Shown here: piece by piece, positions 38,263 to 52,698 of the stretch
Position numbering within the stretch: position 1 is the stretch's first letter
Layout of the letters: every line of letters starts with the position of its first letter
NCBI GenBank assembly: GCA_050950505.1
Contig: JBMNHS010000001.1
Span: 448,001-512,000 of the forward strand
DNA: 64,000 nt
DNA from: Candidatus Methanomethylophilaceae archaeon
Lineage (GTDB): Archaea; Thermoplasmatota; Thermoplasmata; Methanomassiliicoccales; Methanomethylophilaceae
Direction: 5' to 3'
The notes under the pieces: model-generated
Told to the model about the DNA's origin: nothing
What the model saw: the letters and a program-made list of their open reading frames with translations, nothing else
Databases searched by the model: none
Position numbers and translations under genes: made by a program

Positions 38263-39057
38263 ATGGCATTTAGGGATGCAGTCAAAGGAAAACTGAGCGA
38301 ACTATACAGTTTCAGGCATATGTATTACTCTCTGGTACAAAGGAGCCTATTCGGAAAGTATAGGAATTCCGCATTAGGATTTCTTTGGAATTTTTTAACC
38401 CCCGCAATCTCTATTTTACTGTTCTATATTGTTTTTGAAAATTTTATGGGTCAGAATATTGACAACTACTGGGCTTACTTGTGCGTAGGAATGTTTCCGT
38501 TTCAATTTATGAATCAAAACCTTATCGGAGGAGCATCCAACATAACGTCGAATGGAGGCATGGTCAAGAAGATATACTTCCCAAGAGAAATTTTGTCATT
38601 GTCCCAAGTCACATACACATTCATCATTTTTCTGATATCCTATGGAATCGTCATATCATTAATGATCGCTACAGGCATATTTCCAACGGGGGGTTTGCTC
38701 GCTCTGCCCATTATAATTCTGACTATGTTCTTATTTTCACTAGGAACAATAATGCTGACATCTTCAATTTCAGTATATTCCCGAGATTTCGAATATCTTA
38801 TAACCGCTTTTTCAAGAGTGTTGTTCTGGGTAACGCCTATATTCTATCTGGCAGAAGCGAGGGCAGGGATATTATACACGATAATATGGTTCAACCCTCT
38901 GACGTATTTTGTAGAGGGATTTCATCACGCGGTCTGTTGGGGCACTATGCCCAGTACGGGACTGTTAATGGGTTGCGTATTGATTTCCATTGTTGTTTTC
39001 GTGATAGGAGCGTTAGTATTTTTTAAGCTCAAAGATGGATTCGCGGAGAGGATCTGA
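38263..39057 (+). CDS. wzm: Polysaccharide ABC-2 exporter permease (Wzm-like), copy 2
   Basis: Colinear, same-length paralog of 19925-20719. Confidence 0.93.
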   Translation: MAFRDAVKGKLSELYSFRHMYYSLVQRSLFGKYRNSALGFLWNFLTPAISILLFYIVFENFMGQNIDNYWAYLCVGMFPFQFMNQNLIGGASNITSNGGMVKKIYFPREILSLSQVTYTFIIFLISYGIVISLMIATGIFPTGGLLALPIIILTMFLFSLGTIMLTSSISVYSRDFEYLITAFSRVLFWVTPIFYLAEARAGILYTIIWFNPLTYFVEGFHHAVCWGTMPSTGLLMGCVLISIVVFVIGALVFFKLKDGFAERI

Positions 39058-41685
39058 GTGTCCAAATGTGCAGTACGCGTCATAAATGTGAATAAGTCAT
39101 TCACCACCATGGCAGAAACAGACGACGGCGGTCTTTTAAAGAGAAGGAAAAAGATTACAAAACACATCCTCAAAGATGTTAATTTAGACATCAAAAAAGG
39201 AGAGGTTTTCGGTATAATAGGAAGAAACGGTTCCGGAAAAAGCACCACTCTGAACATGATTTCTAAAATTATGAAACCCGATTCCGGAACAATAGAAATT
39301 AACGGTAAGGTTGCAAGCATCTTAGAATTGGGCATGGGATTTCATAACGATTTGACCGGAAGAGAAAATATCTACATTAAAGGAACAATGTACGGACTTA
39401 CCAGAAAACAATTGGATGCGAGAATGGATAACATTGTGGACTATGCCGACATTGGAGAATATATCGATCTTCCCATGCGGGTGTATTCTTCAGGAATGCG
39501 TAGCAGAGTCGCCTTCTCAATCATGATAAGTGTCGACGCGGACATAATAATTTTGGATGAAGTGTTGGCCACCGGCGATTTGGCATTCAATAAGAAATCC
39601 CGTACACATTTTTCTAACCTAAAACTTGAAGGCAAGACCATAATTCTTGTGGCACATTCCATGTCAACGATGAGGGAGATGTGCGACAGGGTGGCATGGT
39701 TGGACAACGGAGTAATAAGAGAAGTTGGCCCCCCCAATGTAGTCTGTGGCCATTATGAGACAGAGCTCGCGGAGTCTATAGATATATTAACGGAGCTCGC
39801 GGAATCGGGAGTTCCCGCATCTCAAAACACTCTCGGTTGTATGTATCGCGACGGCCACAGAGTAGAGAAAGATATGGGGAAAGCCAAGTATTGGTTCGAA
39901 GAAGCGGCTAAAAGAAATTATGATATTGCCAAGGTAAATCTTGCCGATATAATTGTAACCGATGAAGCATTGGAAAACATAGACAAGGCGATGGACCTCT
40001 ATATGAGTGCCGCAGGAAGAGGCAATCGGGAAGCGCGTACTAAATTATCCCGCTTGCTTACAAACGAGTCGCGGGACATAAGTATGGAAGTCGTAAATGA
40101 TTTCAAGGAACTGTTGTCTTCCGCGAATCCTCAGTTATATTATGAATATGCGGATTTAATATTGAAAACTGCCTGGAACAATGAGGGTCAAAGAGAAGCA
40201 TTCCTCTGGTTTGAGAAAGCCTCGGATTATGGTCACGCAACAGCCATGTATCAGATTGCATTAATGTATCGAGACGGGACGGGTATTTCTCAGAGCGATT
40301 CAGAATATATCAACTGGCTAAAGAAAGCCGCAAGATGCGGACACGCTTATTCTCAATTAATGTTAGGTAACGCGTATCGAGACGGAATCAAGGTAGATCA
40401 TGATATAGAAGAGGCCTTCATTTGGTACAAAATGGCGGCGGACAATAACAATCTTGATGCCATTTATCAGGTGGCTATGATGTATCGCAAAGGTACGGGA
40501 ATCCATGAAAGCAGAGAGGAATCAGATTACTGGCTCAAACTTTATGCACAGCACGGATTAAATCGTCAAATAAATATTCTCGCCGATTCATATGCCAATA
40601 ACAAGAATGGAGTTTTTGATATTGAGAAAGGAAAAAAATGGTACGCCGTGAACGCTGAGCATGGTTACGGTGATTCAAAATATCGTTTGGGGAATATATT
40701 GAACAGCAGTGAGGACATGGATGAAAGATTGATGGCTTCATCGATTCTCGATGAAGCTTCAAAAAATGAAAATTTCCAATCCACGGTTCAACTTTTCAAT
40801 CTTCATGCACTGGGGGAGGCTGAGAAATCCAACCTTGAAGATACGATATCGCGGTTAGATGAATTAATCGAAAAAGGAAATATGTGGTCAGCCAATACAG
40901 TAGGAAATATATTTGCCGATGCTAAAATTCTAGAATTTGACGGAACAAAGTCAATCGAATATCTAGAAAAAGCTGCTGAATCCAACATAGTTCCCGCCGT
41001 ATACAGGCTGGGGATAATATACCGTGACGGCATTTTAGTCGAGGCTGATTATTCCGAATCCCTCAAATGGTTCAAAAAGGGAGCACTTTTAAAACATGTA
41101 CCCTCTGCAATATCTATAGTGAATATGTACCTTTCAGGTGTAGTAAATCAGGCTGCCCTGGATTATGCGTTGAAAGAAATTGAAAAGATATGTCGGACAG
41201 GCAATACCCATGCCATACGAACATTGGGCGAATACTATCTGAGTGGCAAAGTCGTAGAGCAGAATTTTCAAAAAGCGATTTATTGGTATTCAGTAGGTTC
41301 AAACTTGGGAGATATCGAGTCACGATATCAACTCGGTTTGATTTATCGTGACGGCAAGGGCGTTGAGAAGAGTTTCGAGGAAGCATTAAAATGGTTTTCT
41401 TTATCCGCAAAACAAGGTGATTTCCGATCAATCATAGCCATAATACGAATGTATGGAAGCAATCATGTCGATAAAAACTCATTCGATTCAGCATTTTCAC
41501 AATTAATAGGTATTGCTAAGGGAGGCCACAGGGGCGCTATGCGTGATCTTGGAAATATTTTATACGAGGGTAAGTTGGTGTCTAAAGATTTGAATAAATC
41601 TAAAATATGGTTTGAAAGAGCAGCTATGGCAGGATGCAATTACTCCCGGGAGAAACTGGAATCCCTTAAAAAATTAGAAGAATAA
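39058..41685 (+). CDS. wzt: Wzt-type ABC ATPase fused to SEL1-like repeats, copy 2
   Basis: GRNGSGKST, YSSGM, ILDEVLATGD; SEL1 units; alignable by eye with copy 1 over its full length. Confidence 0.92.
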   Translation: MSKCAVRVINVNKSFTTMAETDDGGLLKRRKKITKHILKDVNLDIKKGEVFGIIGRNGSGKSTTLNMISKIMKPDSGTIEINGKVASILELGMGFHNDLTGRENIYIKGTMYGLTRKQLDARMDNIVDYADIGEYIDLPMRVYSSGMRSRVAFSIMISVDADIIILDEVLATGDLAFNKKSRTHFSNLKLEGKTIILVAHSMSTMREMCDRVAWLDNGVIREVGPPNVVCGHYETELAESIDILTELAESGVPASQNTLGCMYRDGHRVEKDMGKAKYWFEEAAKRNYDIAKVNLADIIVTDEALENIDKAMDLYMSAAGRGNREARTKLSRLLTNESRDISMEVVNDFKELLSSANPQLYYEYADLILKTAWNNEGQREAFLWFEKASDYGHATAMYQIALMYRDGTGISQSDSEYINWLKKAARCGHAYSQLMLGNAYRDGIKVDHDIEEAFIWYKMAADNNNLDAIYQVAMMYRKGTGIHESREESDYWLKLYAQHGLNRQINILADSYANNKNGVFDIEKGKKWYAVNAEHGYGDSKYRLGNILNSSEDMDERLMASSILDEASKNENFQSTVQLFNLHALGEAEKSNLEDTISRLDELIEKGNMWSANTVGNIFADAKILEFDGTKSIEYLEKAAESNIVPAVYRLGIIYRDGILVEADYSESLKWFKKGALLKHVPSAISIVNMYLSGVVNQAALDYALKEIEKICRTGNTHAIRTLGEYYLSGKVVEQNFQKAIYWYSVGSNLGDIESRYQLGLIYRDGKGVEKSFEEALKWFSLSAKQGDFRSIIAIIRMYGSNHVDKNSFDSAFSQLIGIAKGGHRGAMRDLGNILYEGKLVSKDLNKSKIWFERAAMAGCNYSREKLESLKKLEE

Positions 41686-41729: not shown

Positions 41730-43424
41730 TCATTTAATGCGACTCATGATACTCTCGTATCCGTCTTTTACTTTATTCAATATGAATCGAGGGACGTCCG
41801 ACAGAGAAAAGAATAATTTATGATATTCCGAATGGGTCGGATCGCTCGTCCAATTCAATGTATCGAAATATTCCTGTTCTTCCTTGGACATAAATCTGGA
41901 GAGATTCAGAATCCATCTGTTTACGGAATCATGGTTTATCACCGGTATGAAATCTCCGAATACGGATTTCACGGTTTCAAAATAATCCGTCATTCCCGCG
42001 GTCATTTTAGGCATGACATCGGTTCTGAACCATTCGTTTGAGTTTGAGTCGTATACAGGGTATCCGCTGTCATCTATGCTGACTATCGGTTTTTCATCGG
42101 AGGACATCAAAAATTCAGGAACGTCGATGGCGGTCAATTCGAAAAATGACCGATAGTTATCGCAAAATCCCTTTGCATTGTCGTCAGACTTGTTTCGCAA
42201 CAAGACATAGTACAGCCCTTTGACACTTTTGTTCGTAACCTCATCAATAAGCTTTTGCGATGAAAATTTTCTGGTCGAGGCATCCACCACGTATATCGAA
42301 TTCCCATGTTTTGTGTAGCAATCGATGTATGACTTGTATTTGGTCAATTCTTTTTCCATCAACCTTTCAAACAGTTCCGGATTTTCAATTAAAATTTCAT
42401 GAGGGGTTCCCGACAGTTCCCTCACTTCCGGATGGTCTGAAAAATAATCGATGATGTCTTCTTCGTATCCCGGATAATCTCTTCCGTTGATTCCAAAAAG
42501 TATATTGAATCTCCTCGCGGCATAAATGTAATGATTTTCAATTTTTCCAAATAATATGTTATAAGCTTTTTGAGCATTATACCCGTCCCGGGCTATGAAG
42601 AATAAGACACTGTCTTTTTCGGCATTTTCGTTTATGAACGATGCAAACGCAGTATTGACGGGACCCCCGTAGCGGTATCCGAAGTTATACCAGAAATTAT
42701 CATTTTTCTTATGAGTGTTGTATCGGAACAAAGCATCGATTCCGACAATTACCGATCGTTCGTAATTTCTTCTTAAGCGGTAATAGACGCGCTCTTTCTT
42801 ATGCGAACGCAAGTACCTCTCAGTTATGTTCTCGTATTTTATGACGTTTATACCAATATTTTTTGGGATTCTTATATCAGATTTATCGTTGTCGCCTATA
42901 TGTAACAAATCGCAGGGTTCAATTCCAAGATCTTTAAGAATAACTTTGAACAGCCCCCCGGTTCCTTTACTAGTCCGGTGTTCGCCGGACACAAACAATT
43001 TGTGATAACCGTCGAACCCTTTGAGTTTCAGCACATTATCGATAAATTTCGAAGGGAGGTACATATCCGATGCCAATATCACGGTTTTATTGAGAGATAT
43101 AACACAATCGAAAACACTTTTCATTTCGACATTTTGTTGCAGAACCTGTTTTTCATATTTCATTTCCAGATCGATATATGATTTATATTCGGATTCGATT
43201 TCTTCATAAATTTCATATAAAACAATCTCTGGTTGTTTTCTTCTTCTTGCGTTCCTTTCGGCAGATATTCTCGCCTTCGCAAACCCCGGGATTTTTTCCG
43301 TCGCTTCCATATGTCGAAATAAATCAGTGGGCCGTGCATACGGTCGCAACAACAACGTATCAAAAATATCGAACGATATGTAATCGAATGCCTATACCGA
43401 TTCCATCATTTCTGACACAGTCAT
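41730..43424 (-). CDS. HAD phosphatase + PRT-like domain protein (candidate glycan ribofuranosyltransferase); in-frame TAG at codon 11
   Basis: ATG 43424: MTVSEMMESV*AFDYISFDIFDTLLLRPY; the track ORF (from 43355) lacks HAD motif I. Also ASDMYLP, HIGDN..SD, FFIARDGY, VVD....FSSQ. Confidence 0.8.
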
Positions 43425-43429
43425 CAAAA

Positions 43430-44359
43430 TCACTCTGTGAGAACTTCCCGCACAGTCTCTCTCACGGCCTGTTCGGAATCAAATTTAAATTTCCAACCGT
43501 TGGCTTCCGCCTTGGAAATGTCGTATGAAAATGTGGAGACGTCTCCTTTCCAACCTATGGAGCCGCCCGTATATTTGTATTGAACATCTTTCAGTCCCAT
43601 ACCCTCACACACTATGTCGGCTATTCTGTTAACATTGATAAAGGAATTCGTCGAAATGTTGTATACGTCCATACCGCCCCCGATATTTTGGGAGAAGGAC
43701 ATGATACCTTCTGCAAGATCGGTAACGTGGACGTACTGTTTCTTTTGAAGGCCGTCGCCCAATATTTCCAACTCTTCCGGATTTCTCTTCAATTTGTTGA
43801 TGAAGTCGAAAATAACCCCATGTGTAAGTCTGGAACCCACGACGTTGGGGAATCTGAATATGAGCGAATTCAATCCATACATATGAGTATAGGAAGAAAT
43901 CACGGCTTCGGAAGCAAGTTTGTAGGCGCCGTAATGGGATATTGGCTTCAAGTTGCCCTCATCTTCCTTAAGGTCGATACCGGGCTTATCGCCGTATATC
44001 GCCGAAGTGGAAGCGAAAAACAGATTTCCGATCTCGTTTTTAACTATGGCATCAAGAACATTCTTGGTGGTCATGAATGTATTTTTGAAATCGACTTCGG
44101 AATTTTCACTTCCTGCACGTATATCCGAATTTGCCGCAAGATGGAATACAAAATCGCATCCCTTCGATATCTCAATCAGTTCATCGATATTGTTTATATC
44201 CATTTTTTGAAATTCGAATGACTCATTGTCCGTAAGATGATCTATATTTCCAGTATCATCCGAGAAATCAATACTCACTATGTCCCAACCGTCTTCAATC
44301 AACAAATCTTCAAGATGGCTGGCTATGAACCCCGCTCCGCCCGTTACTAACGCCTTCAT
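43430..44359 (-). CDS. NAD-dependent nucleotide-sugar epimerase/dehydratase
   Basis: LVTGGAGFIASH, FASTSAIYG, YGAYK, FRFPNVVG motifs. Confidence 0.92.
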   Translation of the reverse strand: MKALVTGGAGFIASHLEDLLIEDGWDIVSIDFSDDTGNIDHLTDNESFEFQKMDINNIDELIEISKGCDFVFHLAANSDIRAGSENSEVDFKNTFMTTKNVLDAIVKNEIGNLFFASTSAIYGDKPGIDLKEDEGNLKPISHYGAYKLASEAVISSYTHMYGLNSLIFRFPNVVGSRLTHGVIFDFINKLKRNPEELEILGDGLQKKQYVHVTDLAEGIMSFSQNIGGGMDVYNISTNSFINVNRIADIVCEGMGLKDVQYKYTGGSIGWKGDVSTFSYDISKAEANGWKFKFDSEQAVRETVREVLTE

Positions 44360-45348
44360 ATTTTTCGCACTCTTGTATCAAACAATCTGTTATCTCTGTA
44401 ATACACGAACTTCAAATACATATTAAGAGCCAGGTGGTATGTCGACGGAGAAAGGCTTACCCACAGATGGTCCCATGACAGGGGATCTCTCATATGTTTG
44501 TTCCTCATTTCCTTGCATTCGTCGCTTTTTATGTATTTGATAAAATGGTTTCTGTCCATATGTCCGGCTGAACGGACCCTCATGATTGCCGAGCGCCTTG
44601 AGAATATTTCACCGAACCATGATTTTCTGAAATGTTCCTCAAGTTCGCCGTACACCCGTACTTCCCAGTTGCCCACGTCGTTGGGTCTTGAAGAGCAAAT
44701 CGAAAGGGGATTCTGATAATAGAGGTACATCGGCCTGTCGTAATACACAAGAGTATCGCACATTTCCATTGCACGGTATGTATGATTCACATCTTCGGCA
44801 TATCCTCCGTGATGGAAACGCAAATCATTATCCATCAAAAAATCCCGTCTGTGAACCATGGACCACGCCGTAACAGGAATCTGCTCGAGACTCCGTTCAA
44901 TCAGAGCTTCTTTGTTGCTCAGAACTCTGACTTTAAAGTTGCCCTTCGGCTCCGGAGTGTCAATGTCAAATGAGCGAATGAAGTTACACTGCACAATTTC
45001 AGCTTTGTATTTGTCTGCCAATTCAACCATTGTCGAGACAAACTCAGGATACGGACGATCATCTGCGTCGAGAAACCATACATATTTCCCTGAGGAATTT
45101 TCAAGACCGATGTTCCGGGCTTCGCCCAACCTCCCGTCTCCCGTCTGGATTATGGATTTACAGTTCAGTCCTTCTGAAAATCGGGAAATCAATTCCAAGG
45201 TGTCATCCGTGGTCTTGCCGTCAACAACAAAAACAATCTCAAAATCATCAAATTTTTGTTCTCTCAGATATCCGATTATACGCTCTACGTTATCGGATTC
45301 GTTATAAGCAGGTATAACCACACTCAGACAGACCACATCAATCCCCAT
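44356..45348 (-). CDS. GT2 glycosyltransferase
   Basis: LSVVIPAYN, ARNIGL, YVWFLDADD, AED motifs; start approximate. Confidence 0.9.
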   Translation of the reverse strand: MGIDVVCLSVVIPAYNESDNVERIIGYLREQKFDDFEIVFVVDGKTTDDTLELISRFSEGLNCKSIIQTGDGRLGEARNIGLENSSGKYVWFLDADDRPYPEFVSTMVELADKYKAEIVQCNFIRSFDIDTPEPKGNFKVRVLSNKEALIERSLEQIPVTAWSMVHRRDFLMDNDLRFHHGGYAEDVNHTYRAMEMCDTLVYYDRPMYLYYQNPLSICSSRPNDVGNWEVRVYGELEEHFRKSWFGEIFSRRSAIMRVRSAGHMDRNHFIKYIKSDECKEMRNKHMRDPLSWDHLWVSLSPSTYHLALNMYLKFVYYRDNRLFDTRVRKI

Positions 45349-45466
45349 CCTGTTCTGGTATGTAGATGCAGTCATTATTAAATCTATTTCCATATTCATG
45401 GTTGAACAAGTGGAATCTGATTTTTCGGTCAAGAGCGAAATCAGTCAAGACGCATGAGACAATATT

Positions 45467-46516
45467 ATGAAAACAGACGTGGTAATACTCAGACGCTAGC
45501 TCAATAAAACAAACAAAGTCACAGGAGTCAGCGTGTACACAGATATGATAAAAACACTTCTCGATTCTAACAAATTGACATCGGAAGACGTGTGTTTTAA
45601 ACTGTCCTCCGACGAAGGATATGCAAAATGCGTAACTCAGGGACTGATTATTCCGATACGGGATTTGAAAAAACAAAAGGGAAGGATATATCACGCAACC
45701 GACGAACTGTGTTGTATAGGTTATCCATTTTTCAAGGGTAAGAAAATAACCACATTCCATCATATTCCCAAGAAAACAGTAAAAGACGGTTATTCTCCCC
45801 TGTTGTACAGAGTATGGAAGGCCGCTGCGAAAAACGCCATAAAGTATTCAGATGCGATTATCTCCGTATCTGAGCAAACCAAAGACGAACTTGTTGAATT
45901 CATGGGAGCGGATCCGAATAAGATTTTTGTCTTGGAACACCGAGCCGATTCCTTTTTCCAAGATTTGGGCAGACCCAGAAAAAAATTGATAGGATATGTG
46001 GGCACACTGATTGAACGAAAAAATGTGGAATCGGGTGTATTGGCTTTCAAATCATTCATCGAAATGCAGGACGCCGGGGATTACAATCTGGTTATTTGCG
46101 GAGAAGGGCCTCTTAAGGAGGATCTCAATAAACTTGCGGATTCTTTGGATATATCGGACAGAGTGTCTTTTATTTCCAACATTTCTAAAACTGAATTAAG
46201 AGATTTGTACAACGACATGGCCGTGTTCATCAATCCCTCTTTCCACGAGGGGCTGGGGCTTACCGCAATGGAAGCTCAGGCATGCGGAACACCGGTGGTT
46301 TACTTCAGAGACGCTGAAATCCCGCCGGAAGTATCCAAAGGATACGTTCCTTCCGATGACGTAGAGGATTTTGCAAAGAACATCCATAGGCTGGTGACCG
46401 ATACCGATTTCAGAAACAAGTTCAAGATTGTGCCAAAATCGGGATTGAGCGATGAAGAGTATGCCAAAAAATTGTTTGAAATCTATTCTGTTGTTTCCGG
46501 TGAAGAATTTCCTTGA
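45467..46516 (+). CDS. GT4 (GT-B) glycosyltransferase; in-frame TAG at codon 11
   Basis: ATG 45467: MKTDVVILRR*LNKTNKVTGVSVYTDMI, in frame with the track ORF from 45533; YVGTLIERKN and EGLGLTAMEAQACGTPV motifs. Confidence 0.85.
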
Positions 46517-46596: not shown

Positions 46597-47592
46597 TTGA
46601 GTCTTATGATTATCACTCGTACCCCTCTCCGAATAAGTTTTTCGGGAGGAGGCAGCGATCTTCCGTCTTTTTACAGAAAACATGGAGGATGCACTGTAAG
46701 CACTACGATTGACAAATACATTTACCTGACACTTCAGGATTCATTTACCCCCGGAATATCAACAATAAAGTATTCCAAAGTTGAAAGTTTTGAAAATGTC
46801 AATGAAATAAACCATCCGATTTTCAGAGAATGTATGCTTAGTTTTGATGCGGATTCATTGGAAATGTCAAGTATGGCGGACATACCCGCCGGAACGGGAT
46901 TGGGCTCTTCGAGTTCATTTACGGTAGGATTGATTAACCTTATGAGCCGGTATAAAAATTTAGATTATGACAAGGAACTACTGGCTCAACTTGCATGTGA
47001 GTTGGAGATAAACCGATTAGGTGAACCCATAGGGAAACAGGACCAGTATGCTGCCGCATACGGAGGATTGAACTATTACAGATTCAACCAGGACGATACG
47101 GTCGATGTAATTCCGGTCAATCTATCCGTTAAAAATATGGAAAAGCTGAATGAAAATTTGATTCTGATGTACACGGGAATCACTCGAAGCGCTTCCGAGA
47201 TACTTGTAAAGCAGGACTCGAACATTGAAAAGGGCACGGGCGCCGATAAAAATCTGTTGGAGATGTGCGATCTCACAAACAACCTGTTCAAAGATCTGGA
47301 AAGGGGAAACATAAGTGCTATGGGAGACATTCTGGACAAAGGATGGAATCTGAAGAAGACTTTGGCCGAAGGAATATCTTCCGACGGAATAAACCGTGCA
47401 TACAGAGCGGCAATGGATGCGGGGGCGCAAGGCGGAAAACTTTTGGGAGCGGGGGGAGGGGGCTTCATGTTGTTTTATGCAGACAAAGAATTTCACGGAG
47501 AAATTGAAAAGAGTCTTCCGGGATACAGAAGAACGCCATTCAGATTTGATGACACAGGTTCGATAATGATATACAACGGCAATACTCAATGA
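46597..47592 (+). CDS. hddA: GHMP kinase, D-glycero-D-manno-heptose-7-phosphate kinase (HddA-like)
   Basis: TPLRISFSGGGSD, PAGTGLGSSS, GKQDQYAAAYGG, GGKLLGAGGGGF motifs. Confidence 0.88.
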   Translation: MSLMIITRTPLRISFSGGGSDLPSFYRKHGGCTVSTTIDKYIYLTLQDSFTPGISTIKYSKVESFENVNEINHPIFRECMLSFDADSLEMSSMADIPAGTGLGSSSSFTVGLINLMSRYKNLDYDKELLAQLACELEINRLGEPIGKQDQYAAAYGGLNYYRFNQDDTVDVIPVNLSVKNMEKLNENLILMYTGITRSASEILVKQDSNIEKGTGADKNLLEMCDLTNNLFKDLERGNISAMGDILDKGWNLKKTLAEGISSDGINRAYRAAMDAGAQGGKLLGAGGGGFMLFYADKEFHGEIEKSLPGYRRTPFRFDDTGSIMIYNGNTQ

Positions 47593-47601
47593 CGGAACAG
47601 G

Positions 47602-48189
47602 GTGATGACAATGGATTTTTCTCAGGATTTAAAAAATTATTTTGACAAAATGAAAACAGTAATCGACAGTATAGATTCCGAACAGGTTCAATCCGCAATG
47701 GATGCAATCATGGATGCTTATCGCAGAAATTCCACCGTATTTATTTTCGGTAATGGCGGCAGCGCGTCCACGGCATCCCATATTGTTTGTGATTTCAACA
47801 AAGGAATTTCCATGGGACTCGATGATAAGTTCAATTTTGTATGTCTGAATGACAACATTGCCACAATGATGGCGATATCCAACGATATCAGTTATGACAA
47901 AGTTTTCTCCATCCAATTGGAAGGAAGATTGAAGAAAGGAGATCTGGTGTTCGGAATATCCGGCAGCGGCAATTCCAAAAATGTGATAAATGCAGTGGAA
48001 TACGCAAAATCACGGGGTAACGAAGCAGTCTCCCTCACAGGATACGATGGCGGAAAATTAAATGAATTATCGGATTATCCCATACATGTGCCTGTCAACG
48101 ACATGCAAAAGGCCGAGGATTCACACATGATGATTCTGCACGCTATGGCTCAAGTCATAGCGAAGAATCTTGGAAATCCGATGTGTTGA
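47602..48189 (+). CDS. gmhA: Phosphoheptose isomerase (SIS domain)
   Basis: FGNGGSASTASH, AISND, ISGSGNSKNV, LTGYDGG, ED.H motifs. Confidence 0.9.
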   Translation: MMTMDFSQDLKNYFDKMKTVIDSIDSEQVQSAMDAIMDAYRRNSTVFIFGNGGSASTASHIVCDFNKGISMGLDDKFNFVCLNDNIATMMAISNDISYDKVFSIQLEGRLKKGDLVFGISGSGNSKNVINAVEYAKSRGNEAVSLTGYDGGKLNELSDYPIHVPVNDMQKAEDSHMMILHAMAQVIAKNLGNPMC

Positions 48190-48196
48190 ATAACAA

Positions 48197-48466
48197 TCAG
48201 ATGTTTGTCATCGAAACACATTCGACGTTTTCAACGTCGTCAATGGAACGAAGACCGTCTTCTATTTTGGATCCTATGTTTTCGTCAGAATCGTCGATAA
48301 GCAATCCGACGGAAACCTTTTTGAGGCCGAACGCAACCGGTTCTATTGAGGATTCGGTTATTTCAACACCTTCGGGAAGAACGTCCTTCACGGCGCTCTG
48401 TATGGCCTCGACGTCCGCTTCGGTGCCGTTGGGGAATATCTCGTACCCTGCAACAATCTGTGCCAT
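48197..48466 (-). CDS. ef1b: Translation elongation factor 1-beta
   Basis: EPVAFGLK motif; 89 aa. Confidence 0.95.
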   Translation of the reverse strand: MAQIVAGYEIFPNGTEADVEAIQSAVKDVLPEGVEITESSIEPVAFGLKKVSVGLLIDDSDENIGSKIEDGLRSIDDVENVECVSMTNI

Positions 48467-48475
48467 GCCTTTACC

Positions 48476-48640
48476 TCACGGTCCGACGAATCCGCATTTC
48501 TTGCATTCGTACTCAATGCCCTGATCGCGGCACTGAGCGCATCTTCCGACTTCATCGTCCCCGCATTTGGGGCATTTGAAGAATGTATTGCCTCTTCCGG
48601 TGAGTCTTACGCCGCAGGAAGAGCATATTTTATCTGCCAT
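48476..48640 (-). CDS. Zinc-ribbon protein, DUF1610/HVO_2753 family, 54 aa (not in ORF track)
   Basis: MADKICSSCG...FKCPKCG....RCAQCR....YECKKCGFVGP*: four CxxC; conserved archaeal position upstream of EF-1beta. Confidence 0.92.
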   Translation of the reverse strand: MADKICSSCGVRLTGRGNTFFKCPKCGDDEVGRCAQCRDQGIEYECKKCGFVGP

Positions 48641-48722
48641 GCGGGTGCGATACTTTTCTTTATATTTAAACCGAGCACAAGAACAACGGAAAGCCTATCA
48701 ACTAATCCGCGGTATCGATGTT

Positions 48723-49589
48723 ATGAACATCAGTTCCGATTGTGTCCCGTGTTTGCTGAAAAGAGTTTTGTTCCAGGCACGCTTGGCAGACAATGATTCG
48801 GAATTCAACGCATTGTCGGCAGCATTATCCACATTCTCCGAAGAATACGAAGAAGGAAGAAACTCGGCCGAGGTTGCGACGGCAGTGCATACCGTCGCTT
48901 ACAAAGCCATGGGCATCTCCGATCCGTACAAGGGATTGAAAATCATCGCAGACGAAGTAGCGGGAAATCTCTTGGATAAAGCGCAGGAGTATGTCGAATC
49001 ATCCGATAACCGTCTGAGGGCGGCAATGACCGTGGCGATAATCGGCAACATAATGGATTTCGGACAAACAACATCGATAGATCACCCGGATCTCTTCACG
49101 GATCTTTTCGAAGAATTGTTGGAACAGGGCATAGATTCCGACGATACCGAAATTGTCGAAGAGTGTCTGAGAAAACCGGGCGACATATTGTATGTTTTTG
49201 ACAACAGCGGAGAGAGCCAGCTTGATAAAATATTGATCAGAGAACTGAAGTCCAGAGGCAAACACGTCATAGGCGTGGTCAGAGGTGCTCCGATACTCAA
49301 CGACGTAACCATGGAGGATGCATCGCGGTCGGGTTTGGACAAAGAACTTGACGATATAATCAGTACTGAAAAATTCGCAATCGGGATTCCCATGAAAATT
49401 GAAAAAGACTTATCCGAAGCCTTATCGAAAACATCTTTCATAATTGCGAAAGGAATGGCAAATTTCGAATCCATGGAAGGAAGGGATTTCGGAGTGCCGG
49501 TGGCATTCCTCTTAAGGGCGAAATGTGTGCCGGTGGCAAACGCGTTGGGTGTGGATGTCGGTACGAATGTCGCCCGCGTCGCCGTATGA
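48723..49589 (+). CDS. DUF89/ARMT1-like damage-control phosphatase
   Basis: C.PC, DPY...K, GN.MDFG, DNSGE..LD, LND, IAKGMANFE, KC motifs. Confidence 0.9.
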   Translation: MNISSDCVPCLLKRVLFQARLADNDSEFNALSAALSTFSEEYEEGRNSAEVATAVHTVAYKAMGISDPYKGLKIIADEVAGNLLDKAQEYVESSDNRLRAAMTVAIIGNIMDFGQTTSIDHPDLFTDLFEELLEQGIDSDDTEIVEECLRKPGDILYVFDNSGESQLDKILIRELKSRGKHVIGVVRGAPILNDVTMEDASRSGLDKELDDIISTEKFAIGIPMKIEKDLSEALSKTSFIIAKGMANFESMEGRDFGVPVAFLLRAKCVPVANALGVDVGTNVARVAV

Positions 49590-49628
49590 ATGCAATTAAT
49601 ATCAAAAGTACATTCAGGATTGATACCC

Positions 49629-50666
49629 ATGTCAGACAAAGTAACTCAAGCCGTCATTATGGTCGGAGGCAAAGGTACGAGGTTGAGGCCGCTCACGGAG
49701 ACCTGCCCAAAACCTCTGCTTCCGGTACTTGACAAACCCTGTCTCATGTATCTCATTGAGAATCTGGCATCATCGGGGATCGATGAAATAATATTGGCTT
49801 GCGGTTACAGATCCGCTCAACTCGTTGAAACCATAGGTGACGGTTCCGAACTGGGCATAAAAATAACCTATTCTTTTGAAGACGAGCCTCTCGGCACTGC
49901 GGGGGCAATAAAGAAAGTCGAAAGCAAATTGGACGAAACCTTCGTCGCAATGAACGGGGACGTGTTTTCCCACATAGATGTATCCGAAGCGGTCAAAGAA
50001 CATTTCGCTTCGGGTGCGACAGTGACAATTTCTCTGACGGAAGTCAAAAATCCCTGTGAATACGGAATAGCCAGAGTGGAAGATGACGGAAGAATATCCG
50101 AATTCAGAGAAAAACCGAAGCCTGAGGAAGTATTCTCAAATCTCATAAACGCAGGCACATACGTGGTTCAGAAAGAAGTTTTGAAATACGTTCCCGATGA
50201 GGGTCAATACGACTTCTCCAAAGAACTTGTCCCGGATCTTATGAAAAAGGGATATCGGGTACAGGGTTACAGATACACCGGACCTTGGTTGGACGTCGGC
50301 CGTCCTTCCGATCTTATCGGCGCCAATAAAATGGCTGCCGACCGAAATCCTATGATTCCGGGCATGAAAAAGGAATTGGCCGGCTCATCCGTCGAAGGAC
50401 CGTTTTACCTTGGTGACGGATCCGTCATGACGGGCACACTATCCAGTTCTTCATTCATTCATAAAAACTGCACCGTGGAAGATTCCGATTTGTCGAACTC
50501 ACTGGTAATGGAAGGATGCACCGTAAAATCTTCCGGACTGCATAACAGCATCCTGGGCAAAGGATGTGAAATAATGCCGGGTTCCGTCATTGAAGACTCG
50601 GTGCTCGGTGACGGTGAAAAAGTACCAGAAAACACTAAAATCGTAAGAAATGAGGTGATTCATTGA
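49629..50666 (+). CDS. Sugar-phosphate nucleotidyltransferase (mannose-1-P guanylyltransferase/HddC-like) with left-handed beta-helix tail
   Basis: GGKGTRLRPLT...PKPL, PLGTAG, NGDV, EKP, INAGTY, WLDVG motifs. Confidence 0.9.
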   Translation: MSDKVTQAVIMVGGKGTRLRPLTETCPKPLLPVLDKPCLMYLIENLASSGIDEIILACGYRSAQLVETIGDGSELGIKITYSFEDEPLGTAGAIKKVESKLDETFVAMNGDVFSHIDVSEAVKEHFASGATVTISLTEVKNPCEYGIARVEDDGRISEFREKPKPEEVFSNLINAGTYVVQKEVLKYVPDEGQYDFSKELVPDLMKKGYRVQGYRYTGPWLDVGRPSDLIGANKMAADRNPMIPGMKKELAGSSVEGPFYLGDGSVMTGTLSSSSFIHKNCTVEDSDLSNSLVMEGCTVKSSGLHNSILGKGCEIMPGSVIEDSVLGDGEKVPENTKIVRNEVIH

Positions 50667-51670
50667 AATATATCCGTTCGAGGGCTCCTCTGAGAATCGG
50701 GTTGGCCGGCGGAGGCACGGACGTAGATCCGTACGCGTCCGAAAAAGGCGGAGCCGTGTTCAACACGACGATAAACAAGTACGCATACTGTACTATAATT
50801 CCCAACGGCACCAAGAACATATCCGTGGAATCCGCGAATTACGGAATGTATGAAACATCTCTCGACGGCGGACCTCTGCCTCTCGACGGAAACATGGATT
50901 TGGTAAAGGCGGTGCTTAACCATTTTGAAATCCGGGACGGGTTCAGAATGCTTCTTCAGTCCGATTCGCCCCCGGGTTCGGGATTGGGAGGGTCTTCCAC
51001 GGTCATAGTGGCCGCCATTGCCGCAGTTGCGGAATGGACGGGAGAAAAGCTGACAAGCAGCGAATTGGCAAATCTGGCATACAAGCTTGAAAGGGAAGAC
51101 ATCGGACTCAAAGGCGGCAAACAGGACCAGTACGCCGCGGTGTTCGGCGGATTCAATCTGATGAAGTTCAGGAACGAAGGCGTTGATGTGAACAGAATCA
51201 AAATCAAAGAACATACGCTGAACGAACTGCAATACCGTTCCGTATTGTGCTATACCGGAAAGACCCGCGAATCCGCGAACATCATCGATTCCCAGATGAA
51301 AAGGTTTGAAAAGGGAGACAACGAAGAAGCCCTGGATCTGACAAAGGAAATGGCAATGGACATGGCGATGGCTTTGGAAAAAGGCGACATTGAAGAAACG
51401 GCCCGTTTATTGGATCTCGGTTGGGATTACAAAAAACAATTTTCCGATAAAATAACAAATCCGGAAATTGACAAACTGTACAATGCCGCCAAAGATTCCG
51501 GGGCCATCGGAGGCAAGGTTTCCGGTGCCGGAGGCGGCGGATTCATGTTTTTCATATGCGATTATGACAAAAAGTTCGTGGTATCCGAGAAATTGACGAA
51601 ACTCGGTGCTAAAGTAACGGATTTTATGTTTGAGCCCGAAGGTGTCGTCACATGGAGGTCGGAAGAATGA
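50663..51670 (+). CDS. hddA: GHMP kinase, HddA-like, second copy
   Basis: RAPLRIGLAGGGTD, PPGSGLGGSS, GKQDQYAA, GGKVSGAGGGGF motifs. Confidence 0.9.
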   Translation: MKYIRSRAPLRIGLAGGGTDVDPYASEKGGAVFNTTINKYAYCTIIPNGTKNISVESANYGMYETSLDGGPLPLDGNMDLVKAVLNHFEIRDGFRMLLQSDSPPGSGLGGSSTVIVAAIAAVAEWTGEKLTSSELANLAYKLEREDIGLKGGKQDQYAAVFGGFNLMKFRNEGVDVNRIKIKEHTLNELQYRSVLCYTGKTRESANIIDSQMKRFEKGDNEEALDLTKEMAMDMAMALEKGDIEETARLLDLGWDYKKQFSDKITNPEIDKLYNAAKDSGAIGGKVSGAGGGGFMFFICDYDKKFVVSEKLTKLGAKVTDFMFEPEGVVTWRSEE

Positions 51671-52698
51671 ATGAGTTACTGACTGCGGAATTTGAACAGA
51701 GCGCATCTGTAATACGAAAGTTGGACACTGCAAGCGTCGTTAAAGTGGCCGATGCAATAACATCCTCGCTCAAAAAGGGCGGAAAAGCAATCTTCATGGG
51801 CAACGGCGGATCCGCCGCGGATGCGCAGCATATCGCCGCCGAATTGTCCGGACGTTACCTGATGGACCGTCCTGCCATGGCGGGTATGGCACTGTCCAAT
51901 GTCGTGCCTATCACCGCGATAGGAAACGATTACGGTTACGAATTCGTATTCAAACGTCAGATTGAATCAATCTGCAATGAAAATGATATCGTCATAGGAT
52001 TGTCAACGTCAGGCAATTCCGAAAATGTAATACTGGCTATTGATGCGGCAAAGGCCATCGGAGCCACAACGGTATCCTTCACAGGCAACGGAGGGAAGTT
52101 GAAAGACATTGTAGATATACCCGTCATCATAGATTCCAACGAAACTCCCAGAATTCAAGAAGGTTATTTTGTCGCATGTCACGCCATCTGCGGAATGGTC
52201 GAGCGTAATATGTACGGACCGAAAGCAGTATTCATAGACCGGGACGACACGATTTACGACGATGTCGGTTATTGCAGCAAGGCCGATGATTTCAACGTGT
52301 TCGATTACGTTCCGAAATCAATAGCGAAGCTGAACGAAGCGGGATATCTGGTAATCGTAATAACAAACCAATCCGGAATAAACAGAGGTTATTTCGATCT
52401 CGACACATTGAACGGCATCCATGATAAAATGATAAAACAGATATCTGCGGGCGGGGGAAAAATAGACGATATATTCTTCTGTCCACATCATCCCGATGAA
52501 AACTGTTCCTGCAGAAAACCTGAAATCGGCATGGGTTTGGACGCTGTCAAAAAGTACAAAATAAATCTGCGCGAATCATACATGATCGGAGATTCGGACA
52601 GGGACATGGGCTTCGGCGAAAGGCTGGGATGCAAAACAATCAAAGTCACAGACGATTTCACTTTCAAAGACGCAGTCAACCAAATATTATCTTCATAA
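51667..52698 (+). CDS. GmhA-GmhB fusion (phosphoheptose isomerase + heptose-1,7-bisphosphate phosphatase)
   Basis: GNGGSAADAQH, STSGNS, RIQE; then FIDRDDTI, ITNQSG, CPHHP...CSCRKP, MIGD. Confidence 0.92.
   Translation: MNELLTAEFEQSASVIRKLDTASVVKVADAITSSLKKGGKAIFMGNGGSAADAQHIAAELSGRYLMDRPAMAGMALSNVVPITAIGNDYGYEFVFKRQIESICNENDIVIGLSTSGNSENVILAIDAAKAIGATTVSFTGNGGKLKDIVDIPVIIDSNETPRIQEGYFVACHAICGMVERNMYGPKAVFIDRDDTIYDDVGYCSKADDFNVFDYVPKSIAKLNEAGYLVIVITNQSGINRGYFDLDTLNGIHDKMIKQISAGGGKIDDIFFCPHHPDENCSCRKPEIGMGLDAVKKYKINLRESYMIGDSDRDMGFGERLGCKTIKVTDDFTFKDAVNQILSS

Follow-up and report, generated by a model that had tools for sequence, protein, structure and literature searches.

We found an in-frame TAG at codon 11 of a GT4 glycosyltransferase gene in a 64,000-nucleotide stretch (hereafter the window) of the genome of a Candidatus Methanomethylophilaceae archaeon. 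The reading that we favor, with considerable though not complete confidence, is constitutive read-through of this codon with pyrrolysine (Pyl), giving a full-length 349-residue GT4 of GT-B fold after a near-neutral change from tyrosine to Pyl. The features of the gene, in window coordinates, are:

45467..46516, forward strand: complete GT4 glycosyltransferase gene of 349 codons and a TGA stop, codon 11 being TAG
45467..45496, forward strand: codons 1-10 (MKTDVVILRR), strand β1 of the N-terminal Rossmann-like domain
45497..45499, forward strand: in-frame TAG, codon 11, probable pyrrolysine site and first residue past strand β1
45523..45535, forward strand: AGGAG (45523-45527), 5-nt spacer and GTG (45533-45535), the start chosen by public gene callers (327-aa form) and a possible internal initiation site

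Translation of 45467-46516 places the start codon (ATG 45467-45469), the TAG and the GT4 body in a single frame, as the original prediction had proposed. The product reads MKTDVVILRR-TAG-LNKTNKVTGVSVYTDMI and continues to the TGA at 46514-46516, departing from translation table 11 at the TAG alone. Metagenome contig L020 is 100% identical across 1594 bases, TAG included, and possibly comes from the same source. The site is also spanned by contigs of two other studies: one (X13 record 10, 45351-45559, no other letters) lists no difference at the TAG, and the other (X16 record 13, 45229-46035, two other letters, the listed one at 45562) has the TAG site unchanged. All six variants in the 90% protein cluster of GT4, on contigs ranging from 1.5 kb to 1.17 Mb, were called as 327 aa from the GTG behind the TAG. 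A metagenome scan for GT4 returned two near-identical fragments, three distant paralogues and nothing else. Among sequencing runs, 18 DNA runs contain half or more of the words sampled from the window. The TAG is fixed in the species and the remainder of the gene is intact. The strain variants carry eight nucleotide changes (five synonymous and three conservative replacements; four of the eight come from one low-depth contig end), too few for dN/dS. The strains compared are 99% identical, so persistence of the TAG alone is no proof of long-term selection downstream of it in GT4. The RNA evidence is one 159-nt contig of one metatranscriptome library over 45877-46035, which says nothing on expression or conditions; no RNA contig covers the TAG, and X12 has no contig over 45439-45533, which is no sign of absence either.

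Profile and structure searches agree on the family of the encoded protein. Pfam Glycos_transf_1 (PF00534) matches residues 165-320 with 104.6 bits (cut-off 26.4), PF13692 matches with 89.5 bits, and the families matched include Glyco_trans_1_4 and Glyco_transf_4. The AF2 model (mean pLDDT 89.8, pTM 0.83) consists of two Rossmann-like domains in a GT-B fold, and a Foldseek search with it returned GlgM, MshA, BshA and PimA (probability 1.00, TM 0.70-0.78, best E 3.5e-17). These solved enzymes (GlgM 6tvp, MshA 3c4q, BshA 6n1x and 5d00, PimA 2gej) share with the gene here the two-domain GT-B fold, the C-terminal Glycos_transf_1 domain and the pair E261-x7-E269. Both glutamates are invariant in 27/27 aligned sequences and form the C-domain E-x7-E pattern that we take to be the named GT4 motif. 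The likeness has its limits: identity to the solved enzymes is only 15-20%, the N-domain is short here, and the RR-Y-P...TG-x-G-x-Y motif of this family differs from theirs.

The evidence that bears most directly on the TAG comes from the N-terminus. Related genomes, 10 in all, yielded eleven orthologous matches (E ≤ 4e-124), aligned with the query from residue 1-4 to residue 347-349 with zero stops; the nearest orthologue is 66% identical, and 338 codons follow the TAG. In the 27-sequence alignment G20 is invariant and R10 and Y24 are conserved in at least 90% of sequences, and all of the invariant family columns (27/27) are kept in the gene here. DSSP applied to the AF2 model assigns strand β1 to residues 3-10, with pLDDT 90 over residues 1-10, and helix α1 to residues 20-34; the TAG codon sits in the intervening loop (residues 11-19, pLDDT about 63). 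The original prediction held that the N-terminal extension was genuine, that it supplied the first strand and a glycine loop, and that a start at the GTG would remove them. Each part of this is borne out: orthologues align from residue 1-4, the alignment and the model show that the extension supplies β1 and G20-x-x-x-Y24, and initiation at GTG 45533 (residue 23, inside α1) would delete β1 and G20. Judged from homology and predicted fold, the 22 codons ahead of GTG 45533 are real coding sequence. A complete GT4 N-domain, with β1 and the Gly-containing β1-α1 connection, exists only if TAG 45497 is translated, and we infer that it is.

The residue at the TAG site varies among relatives. The 26 homologues have Y in 15 cases, P in 4, S in 2, C in 2, G in 1, A in 1 and a gap in 1, and the site codon in 11 relatives' loci is TAT in eight, TCT in the closest relative, and otherwise TGT and CCG. 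TAT is one base away from TAG. The site thus appears from the alignment to be poorly constrained and tolerant of change. A paralogous GT4 with its own TAG occurs in two related species (G006 and G012), with 0 differences between them in the 154 codons after that TAG and the 26 before it, making dN/dS impossible.

The genome, which is 1.33 Mb, Methanomethylophilaceae-like and of a genus other than that of a 1.7 Mb single-contig relative, contains pylT and pylSBCD. Three of the protein genes scored above their family cut-offs: pylS at 267 bits (cut-off 178), pylB at 437 bits (348) and pylD at 217 bits (150). For pylC, of which the first 141 residues were scanned, PylC was the best family at 145 bits, under the 248-bit whole-protein cut-off. 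The pylT gene, spotted by eye directly upstream of pylS, is a 71-nt cloverleaf with the anticodon loop CUCUAGA (CUA anticodon). ARAGORN found 41 tRNAs in the whole genome, tRNA(Pyl) not among them, and an Rfam search of the pylS locus at E ≤ 1 returned nothing.

Across the genome, TAG is nearly absent as a terminator. It ends 0/51 long ORFs of the window, 38/1123 genome ORFs of at least 100 aa, and 10/923 ORFs with a coding-like codon score, at least four of those 10 being internal sense TAGs; this ORF census differs from the gene-calling pipeline of Kivenson et al. (bioRxiv 10.1101/2024.09.30.615893). A few genes still end at TAG, such as pylB, where reading on for 29 codons would run 86 nt into pylC, so the codon may not have lost its role as a stop entirely in this genome; the Code 34 pattern calls for few read-through products with a long out-of-frame overlap. 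In a study of Methanosarcina acetivorans, a C-terminal TAG in PylB is likewise noted (Shalvarjian et al., PNAS 2025, PMC12626013).

A second census, with TAG read as sense, gave 129 TAG-containing ORFs, of which 39, picked by length and codon score, were searched with Pfam; the scores of the other 90 are mostly non-coding-like. Sense TAGs were validated in 11 genes. Pfam/NCBIfam domains span or flank the TAG on both sides in mtmB, mtbB and mttB, and likewise in an AAA_14/DUF4143 ATPase (two TAGs), a KAP NTPase, Cas3, a PLD-helicase-DUF3427 protein, a Fer4 protein and a UbiA-type prenyltransferase. Five N-terminal TAG genes (RACo, DHQS II, MFS, CorA and CysRS) were dropped as over-extended ORFs because their domain starts fit initiation downstream of the TAG. 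One further ORF (L043), with an N-terminal TAG at codon 14 and no family, stays a candidate.

The UbiA-type lipid prenyltransferase shares its TAG with a sister species, at codon 85 in both G000 and G007, the other four homologues listed having K or R there. Its dN/dS is 0.11 downstream of the TAG (dS 0.81) and 0.106 upstream, and the gene is single copy in 25/25 relatives searched. The option raised by the original prediction that TAG is used as a sense codon therefore stands, by virtue of the domains that continue across TAG and the purifying selection on UbiA: as far as such comparisons reach, TAG is demonstrably translated in this genome.

These observations are consistent with a simple course of events. 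With TAG nearly eliminated as a terminator yet kept inside conserved genes, a newly mutated TAG would be read through and would not kill the gene, because pylT and pylSBCD are present, TAG stops are nearly gone and TAG lies inside conserved genes. A tyrosine TAT right after β1 would have become TAG by one base and then been fixed in the species, and Pyl-tRNA(Pyl) would put pyrrolysine at codon 11, yielding the whole enzyme. We infer both that the inserted residue is Pyl rather than another and that the change was neutral. A parallel is the Methanosarcina tRNA-His guanylyltransferase (Thg1), which reportedly gained pyrrolysine by neutral evolution; in both, the enzyme is no methyltransferase and the TAG falls where the residue is non-essential and has no role, the two cases differing in the enzyme and in the order of methanogens. 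Some ribosomes may release a 10-residue peptide at the GT4 TAG, since the amber codon is both stop and Pyl in Methanosarcina acetivorans according to the accessible text of Shalvarjian et al. (PMC12626013).

The decoding itself has precedent. The accessible part of the preprint of Kivenson et al. (10.1101/2024.09.30.615893) reports genera of Methanomethylophilaceae as using 'Genetic Code 34', in which TAG is pyrrolysine, attributes Pyl sites, described as lineage-specific singletons, to neutral mutation, and finds PYLIS unnecessary for TAG decoding. In Methanomethylophilus alvi supplied with methanol and ruminal fluid, the proteomics described there detected Pyl in 12 of the 15 predicted Pyl proteins that were expressed; it also found a Pyl-containing glycosyltransferase in M. 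burtonii. Like the 'Category 1' of Code 34 in what that source sets out, the genome here is that of a Pyl-encoding, Methanomethylophilaceae-type methanogen with TAG stops nearly absent, and it has non-methyltransferase TAG genes with homology on both sides. Category 1 as given there calls for an extension of >15 aa and for homology to known proteins on either side of the TAG. GT4 has a 338-codon extension, and the 10 residues before its TAG align with orthologues, a short upstream stretch: a TAG 10 codons from the start is too close for the published definition as written, and orthologue alignment was used instead. GT4 or its relatives may be among the 1903 predicted Pyl proteins of that preprint (10.1101/2024.09.30.615893).

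The strongest of the alternatives, which we nonetheless consider unlikely, is a loss or reduction of function, in which the TAG is a poorly suppressed nonsense mutation and the gene makes either no useful protein or a 327-residue product from GTG 45533 without β1. Several observations fit it. The TAG is one base from an ancestral-looking TAT, and the AGGAG with its 5-nt spacer could support an internal start at GTG 45533, such a 5-mer Shine-Dalgarno-like motif standing ahead of only 2% of internal in-frame start codons. The organism does use such sites, as 4-mers of Shine-Dalgarno type lie ahead of 38% of called starts compared with 10% in a control window, yet the sequence at ATG 45467 has none. 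The gene belongs to a glycan island of low-GC accessory DNA, a setting in which genes are often lost, and another Pyl archaeon decodes amber ambiguously (PMC12626013). Against this, the truncated product would start inside α1 without β1, R10 and G20, and from general structural knowledge such a Rossmann-like domain is unlikely to fold. The 338 remaining codons hold no frameshift or stop and keep 27/27 invariant residues, the TAG is in every strain variant seen, and TAG elsewhere in the genome is read through under selection. The internal motif is itself weak evidence, because 309/838 genes have at least one internal start behind such a 5-mer; an AGGAG at this place is absent from the nine orthologous loci listed.

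Constitutive Pyl read-through of GT4 must also be set against a regulatory role, which was suggested by the surroundings of the gene. In these surroundings GC is 0.36-0.42 over roughly 34-48 kb of the window, compared with 0.488 for the genome. The neighboring genes are:

41730..43424, reverse strand: HAD-like gene, 564 codons, with TAG at codon 11 (43394-43392)
43430-44359, reverse strand: NAD-dependent epimerase/dehydratase (Pfam Epimerase, 162 bits)
44356-45432, reverse strand: GT2, start uncertain (Pfam Glycos_transf_2, 105 bits)
46597..52698, forward strand: GHMP kinase, SIS, ARMT1-like, nucleotidyl transferase, GHMP kinase and SIS-HAD fusion (Pfam)

The epimerase and GT2 genes run in the same direction as the HAD-like gene and are divergent from GT4. 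Translation of GT2 probably begins at an ATG within 45348-45399, because the domain starts at residue 37 of the longest ORF. From their Pfam families, the genes at 46597..52698 appear to be the sugar-nucleotide pathway of the glycan island. A sigma-70 promoter scan was set aside, as the model is not meaningful for an archaeon.

The HAD-like gene repeats the pattern seen in GT4, in agreement with the two early ambers that the original prediction had noted for this module. Its TAG lies seven codons ahead of the DxDxT motif (FDIFDT), eight orthologues align across it from residue 1-3 with zero stops, and the next ATG, GTG or TTG past the TAG falls behind the DxDxT motif. The site codon in relatives is GAA at five loci, GAC at one and CGG at one, a variable residue.

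Two such TAGs in one glycan island underlie the proposal of a Pyl-dependent gate on surface glycan synthesis, in which the early TAGs of the GT4 and HAD-like genes were selected as cheap attenuators and the glycoform is made only at high Pyl supply, for example during methylamine growth. We regard such an adaptive gate as very improbable. The two codon-11 positions speak for it, as does the low price of an early stop, just a 10-residue peptide, and the paralogous GT4 of two related species is also TAG-bearing. The original prediction had called for re-annotation with TAG as sense and a search for positional and functional enrichment. The count by position is on the side of the gate, in that at least two of 12 sense TAGs fall in the first 15 codons in only ~5% of uniform draws, by a post hoc test. 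As for the genes concerned, six of the eight non-methyltransferase TAG genes are accessory genes in the lowest 7% of gene GC, four defence-type genes among them, so that no functional reason has to be sought for a low-GC glycan island with two TAG genes. Chance alone gives a shared codon index in about 10% of draws, in keeping with the caution, voiced at the outset, that it may be coincidence.

The UbiA-type lipid prenyltransferase weighs against a gate. Since it is conserved as a single copy in all of the relatives searched and is under purifying selection past its TAG, read-through must be on whenever the cell grows, and an on/off supply is implausible. TAG is found at 0/11 orthologous GT4 loci and 0/7 orthologous HAD loci in the relatives searched, and both residues are variable. 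A stem-loop of the PYLIS (mtmB) type was sought in the 104 nt behind the GT4 TAG and not found (-13.7 kcal/mol, z-score 0.21, 108/200 shuffles folding equally well). M. alvi on methanol and ruminal fluid still incorporated Pyl, as noted in the accessible part of 10.1101/2024.09.30.615893. The gate is in these respects unsupported.

A form of the gate idea is already in print. In the M. acetivorans study, Pyl supply over demand is proposed to govern the ratio of long to short product for all proteins with a UAG in their gene, and such proteins are suggested as sensors (PMC12626013). That supply and demand are proposed there to set read-through lends the gate some support, yet the published model expects trimethylamine to give less read-through than methanol, contrary to the direction proposed for the gate. 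The work concerns one regulator (RdmS) in a TAG-richer organism, and its accessible part contains nothing on glycan genes. In the bacterium Acetohalobium arabaticum, TAG read-through is reportedly switched by trimethylamine growth (Prat et al. 2012, via PMC3941956), the sort of switch that the original prediction envisaged; as far as that account goes, TAG is a common stop there and the pyl genes are regulated, whereas the genome here is the opposite, avoiding TAG stops and keeping TAG in conserved genes. How efficiently TAG is read through may still vary passively with Pyl supply and demand. It is a speculative step further, and one to which we give little credence, that the codon-11 TAGs might be early low-cost read-through sensors, with methylamine methyltransferase mRNAs soaking up Pyl-tRNA so that both glycan enzymes would fall and the glycoform would track methylamine load; the third independent TAG, in the paralogous GT4 of sister species, hints that glycan genes may be preferred for such tuning.

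Last, a sequencing or assembly error, with nothing to support it and raised solely because TAG is one base from TAT, is scarcely credible and already refuted as far as contigs can show, the TAG being identical in the L020 metagenome contig, unchanged in the contigs of two further studies, and bypassed in each of the six protein variants, which come from several sources and are called from behind it.

This archaeon almost certainly reads TAG as pyrrolysine, which makes the GT4 codon a further instance of a variant genetic code already described in print and unlikely to be a regulatory switch. It opens no new question, because both the code reassignment and the supply-and-demand idea are in print. 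For annotation the consequences are concrete: public calls begin GT4 inside its first helix, as 327 residues, and the HAD-like neighbor would lose its catalytic DxDxT, whereas reading TAG as pyrrolysine restores both proteins and should apply to the whole genus. The shared UbiA TAG, with its dN/dS of 0.11, provides selection evidence, drawn from sequence only, that a further Methanomethylophilaceae lineage translates TAG, and the distribution of TAG genes suggests that new sense TAGs arise first in low-GC accessory islands of glycan and defence genes.

Constitutive read-through as pyrrolysine of a near-neutral tyrosine-to-pyrrolysine change is, from sequence comparison, the likely explanation of the TAG at codon 11 of the GT4 glycosyltransferase gene (window 45467-46516, + strand). 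The frame runs from ATG 45467 through TAG 45497-45499 and then unbroken to TGA 46514-46516, with coordinates and translation as originally predicted. Decoded with the TAG as an amino acid, the product is 349 residues long, and the TAG is the sole codon deviating from table 11, under which the longest ORF is 327 aa, from GTG 45533. Pfam placed Glycos_transf_1 at residues 165-320 (104.6 bits against a cut-off of 26.4), with a partial match to Glyco_transf_4 at residues 92-156. Searching all six frames of 41 genomes, 40 relatives besides the window's own, gave 11 strong matches (E <= 4e-124, identity 54-66%) spread over 10 genomes, each match aligned free of stops from query residue 1-4 through 347-349; a single TAG was recorded only in the window's own copy. 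When 26 of 87 protein database homologues were aligned with the query, G20 was invariant and R10 and Y24 were conserved in at least 90%. All three positions precede GTG 45533 or border on it, and the 22 codons preceding this GTG are coding. An AlphaFold2 model built on the homologue alignment (mean pLDDT 89.8, pTM 0.83) has residues 3-10 forming strand β1 and residues 20-34 forming helix α1, joined by a loop of lower confidence (11-19), and Foldseek matched it to the solved GT4 enzymes GlgM, MshA, BshA and PimA (best E 3.5e-17, TM 0.70-0.78).

The second-ranked explanation, that the gene has lost its function or makes a truncated product, is improbable. An AGGAG motif, a 5-nt spacer and GTG at window 45523-45535 could permit an internal start; such motifs stand ahead of 2% of internal in-frame starts and are present in 309 of 838 genes, and this one is missing from the nine orthologous GT4 loci printed. 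It could be a chance occurrence or a means by which internal initiation partly rescues the gene. Against truncation, a product begun at GTG 45533 (residue 23) would, in the model, start within α1 and lack β1. The original prediction that the extension supplies β1 and that this start removes it thus agrees with both the model and the homologue alignment.

The site itself is variable. Its column in the 26 homologues contains Y in 15, P in four, S and C in two each, G and A in one each, and one gap, and the orthologous codon at 11 relatives' loci is TAT in eight, TCT in the closest relative, and TGT and CCG in one each. TAT becomes TAG by one third-position change, and residue 11 is the first past β1, opening the lowest-confidence loop of the model. 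A folding test found no RNA structure downstream of the TAG (z 0.21). This pattern looks like a near-neutral substitution, in which a tyrosine TAT at a weakly constrained position would have changed to TAG by a single base and then been read constitutively as pyrrolysine.

The genome containing the window (G000; 1.33 Mb, 99.6% complete; window at G000:C1:448001-512000) carries pyrrolysine genes:

Pyrrolysine genes of G000
G000:C1:4.8-8.6 kb, profile matches to pylS, pylB, pylC and pylD
G000:C1:6786-7835 (in stretch L001), - strand, pylB, ending at TAG
L001 2337-2407 (G000:C1), - strand, putative tRNA(Pyl) gene (pylT), 71 nt, directly upstream of pylS

The pylS, pylB and pylD matches are above curated cut-offs; for pylC the scan covered the first 141 residues. 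The tRNA candidate has a cloverleaf fold, a CUCUAGA anticodon loop, a short D arm and an encoded CCA end, and was detected neither by ARAGORN nor by Rfam at E <= 1. The genome also has a corrinoid protein gene and mtmB, mtbB and mttB, each of these three with an in-frame TAG. Read-through of the pylB TAG would add 29 codons and an 86-nt overlap with pylC; a C-terminal TAG in PylB is mentioned for other archaea too in the available text of two papers (PMC12626013; 10.1101/2024.09.30.615893). A few genes, pylB among them, still end at TAG; some termination at this codon may persist.

TAG is rare as a stop in G000. None of 51 long non-overlapping ORFs in the window ends in TAG (36 TGA, 15 TAA); in the whole genome TAG ends 38 of the 1123 ORFs that reach 100 aa and 10 of the 923 that have a coding-like codon score, and at least four of those 10 are upstream halves of genes continuing past the TAG. 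An earlier paper had already remarked that members of this order seldom use amber as a stop (Borrel et al. 2014, PMC3941956). With TAG treated as sense, 129 of 1129 ORFs contained one, the majority over-extended or non-coding-like. We ran 39 TAG-containing ORFs against Pfam and a few against NCBIfam, accepting a sense TAG where domains extended across it or flanked it on both sides. Including the GT4 gene and its HAD-like neighbour, 11 genes with 12 sense TAGs were found.

Genes with domain evidence for sense TAG in G000 (TAG codon / length)
mtmB, 202 / 461
mtbB, 358 / 470
mttB, 361 / 524
AAA_14-DUF4143 ATPase, 286 and 328 / 453
KAP NTPase, 281 / 742
UbiA-type prenyltransferase, 85 / 281
Cas3, 53 / 933
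PLD-helicase-DUF3427 protein, 374 / 947
Fer4 protein, 132 / 230

N-terminal TAGs are the hardest class to validate: five other such candidates were dropped, the Pfam data fitting initiation past the TAG. The one left is L043 (G000:C1:1091552-1092115), an ORF of 187 codons that belongs to no known family, with TAG at codon 14 and coding-like usage on both sides; it is a candidate further early sense TAG.

The HAD-like gene lies near the GT4 gene in a glycan island:

Features of the glycan island (window positions)
38263-41685, + strand, ABC-2 permease and ABC ATPase with a C-terminal Sel1-repeat extension, which may export the glycan
41730-43424, - strand, HAD-like gene, 564 codons, TAG at 43394-43392
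46597-52698, + strand, downstream of the GT4 gene, two GHMP kinases, SIS, SIS-HAD fusion, nucleotidyl transferase with hexapeptide tail, and ARMT1-like genes, presumably resembling a nucleotide-activated heptose pathway

Counted from the ATG aligned with the orthologues' start, the HAD-like TAG is also codon 11, seven codons ahead of the catalytic DxDxT motif (FDIFDT). The next ATG, GTG or TTG is beyond the motif, so table 11 gives an enzyme without its nucleophile; as with the GT4 gene, only read-through is predicted to yield a sensible enzyme. Orthologues have GAA in five, GAC in one and CGG in one at this site (E, D or R).

The original prediction proposed testing in-frame TAGs for positional and functional enrichment. 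In a post hoc placement test drawing the 12 sense TAGs uniformly, about 5% of draws put at least two within the first 15 codons and about 10% gave some pair the same codon index, and the clustering is explained by composition, the glycan island being a low-GC stretch. Of the eight TAG genes that do not encode methyltransferases, six have a GC content within the lowest 7% of genes (median 0.502): GT4 (0.421), HAD (0.392) and four of defence type, KAP NTPase (0.385), PLD-helicase-DUF3427 (0.405), Cas3 (0.413) and AAA_14-DUF4143 (0.435). Sense TAGs accumulate in AT-rich accessory DNA, in glycan and defence genes, which fits mutation under weak constraint. A mid-gene TAG in a paralogous GT4 of two related genomes agrees with this picture:

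Paralogous GT4 genes with TAG at codon 197
L017 (G006:C9) 973-2073
L018 (G012:C2) 1036-2106

The 154 codons past this TAG are identical between the two, against 26 differing sites in the 196 preceding, a contrast suggesting that the 3' half was recently recombined or transferred.

The strongest argument that the GT4 TAG is translated comes from a UbiA-type gene shared with another relative:

UbiA-type prenyltransferase genes with TAG at codon 85
G000:C1:626552-627397 (L072)
G007:C30:4700-5542 (L073)

Its best NCBIfam models are the generic 'prenyltransferase' NF009523 (204 bits) and NF009521, geranylgeranylglycerol-phosphate geranylgeranyltransferase (190 bits), both below the equivalog cut-off. 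It was matched in 25 of 25 genomes searched, once in each with one exception. The two proteins are 82% identical, and codon 85 is K or R in four further homologues printed. Comparing G000 with G007 gave a dN/dS of 0.106 for the part before the TAG and 0.11 for the part after it (dS 0.81 over 196 codons), so the downstream two thirds has been under selection with the TAG in place. Such selection requires the TAG to be translated and implies that read-through in G000 is neither rare nor conditional. The change itself looks like pyrrolysine replacing lysine in a core lipid gene.

That result bears on the two options originally put forward, neutral sense use of TAG or a pyrrolysine-dependent gate on surface glycan. 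Nothing in our analysis supports an adaptive gate, and the selection downstream of the UbiA-type TAG argues against conditional read-through, making this third-ranked reading very unlikely. The available text of Shalvarjian et al. (PMC12626013) describes TAG decoded both as stop and as Pyl in M. acetivorans, proposes that read-through tracks Pyl supply over demand (methanol > trimethylamine), and floats UAG-containing sensors; the gate is similar to that supply/demand hypothesis with the opposite sign. The neutral option, favoured by the variable site and the UbiA-type selection, is the phenomenon documented as 'Genetic Code 34' (Kivenson et al., 10.1101/2024.09.30.615893). These authors infer TAG to be a genome-wide sense codon in archaea including Methanomethylophilus, Methanogranum and Methanoplasma, and in M. 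alvi on methanol with ruminal fluid they detected Pyl in 12 of the 15 predicted Pyl proteins that were expressed. They include a glycosyltransferase among M. burtonii Pyl proteins, ascribe lineage-specific Pyl sites to neutral mutation, and argue that a TAG within essential genes obliges the cell to express Pyl constitutively.

The TAG is real, judging by frame, orthologues and the contigs of two other studies, and the last-ranked reading, an error, is scarcely credible: an X13 contig (record 10, 45351-45559, 0 other letters) covers the TAG, an X16 contig (record 13, 45229-46035, two other letters, the listed one at 45562) has no listed difference there, and all six members of the 90%-identity protein cluster (several sources, contigs of 1.5 kb to 1.17 Mb, 99% mutual identity) are called from behind it, as 327 aa. 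A metagenome contig identical to the window over 1594 bases, TAG included, possibly shares its source and carries little weight, and the lack of an X12 contig at the TAG is uninformative. Since such read-through is already known, the significance of the GT4 TAG is modest and lies chiefly in annotation.
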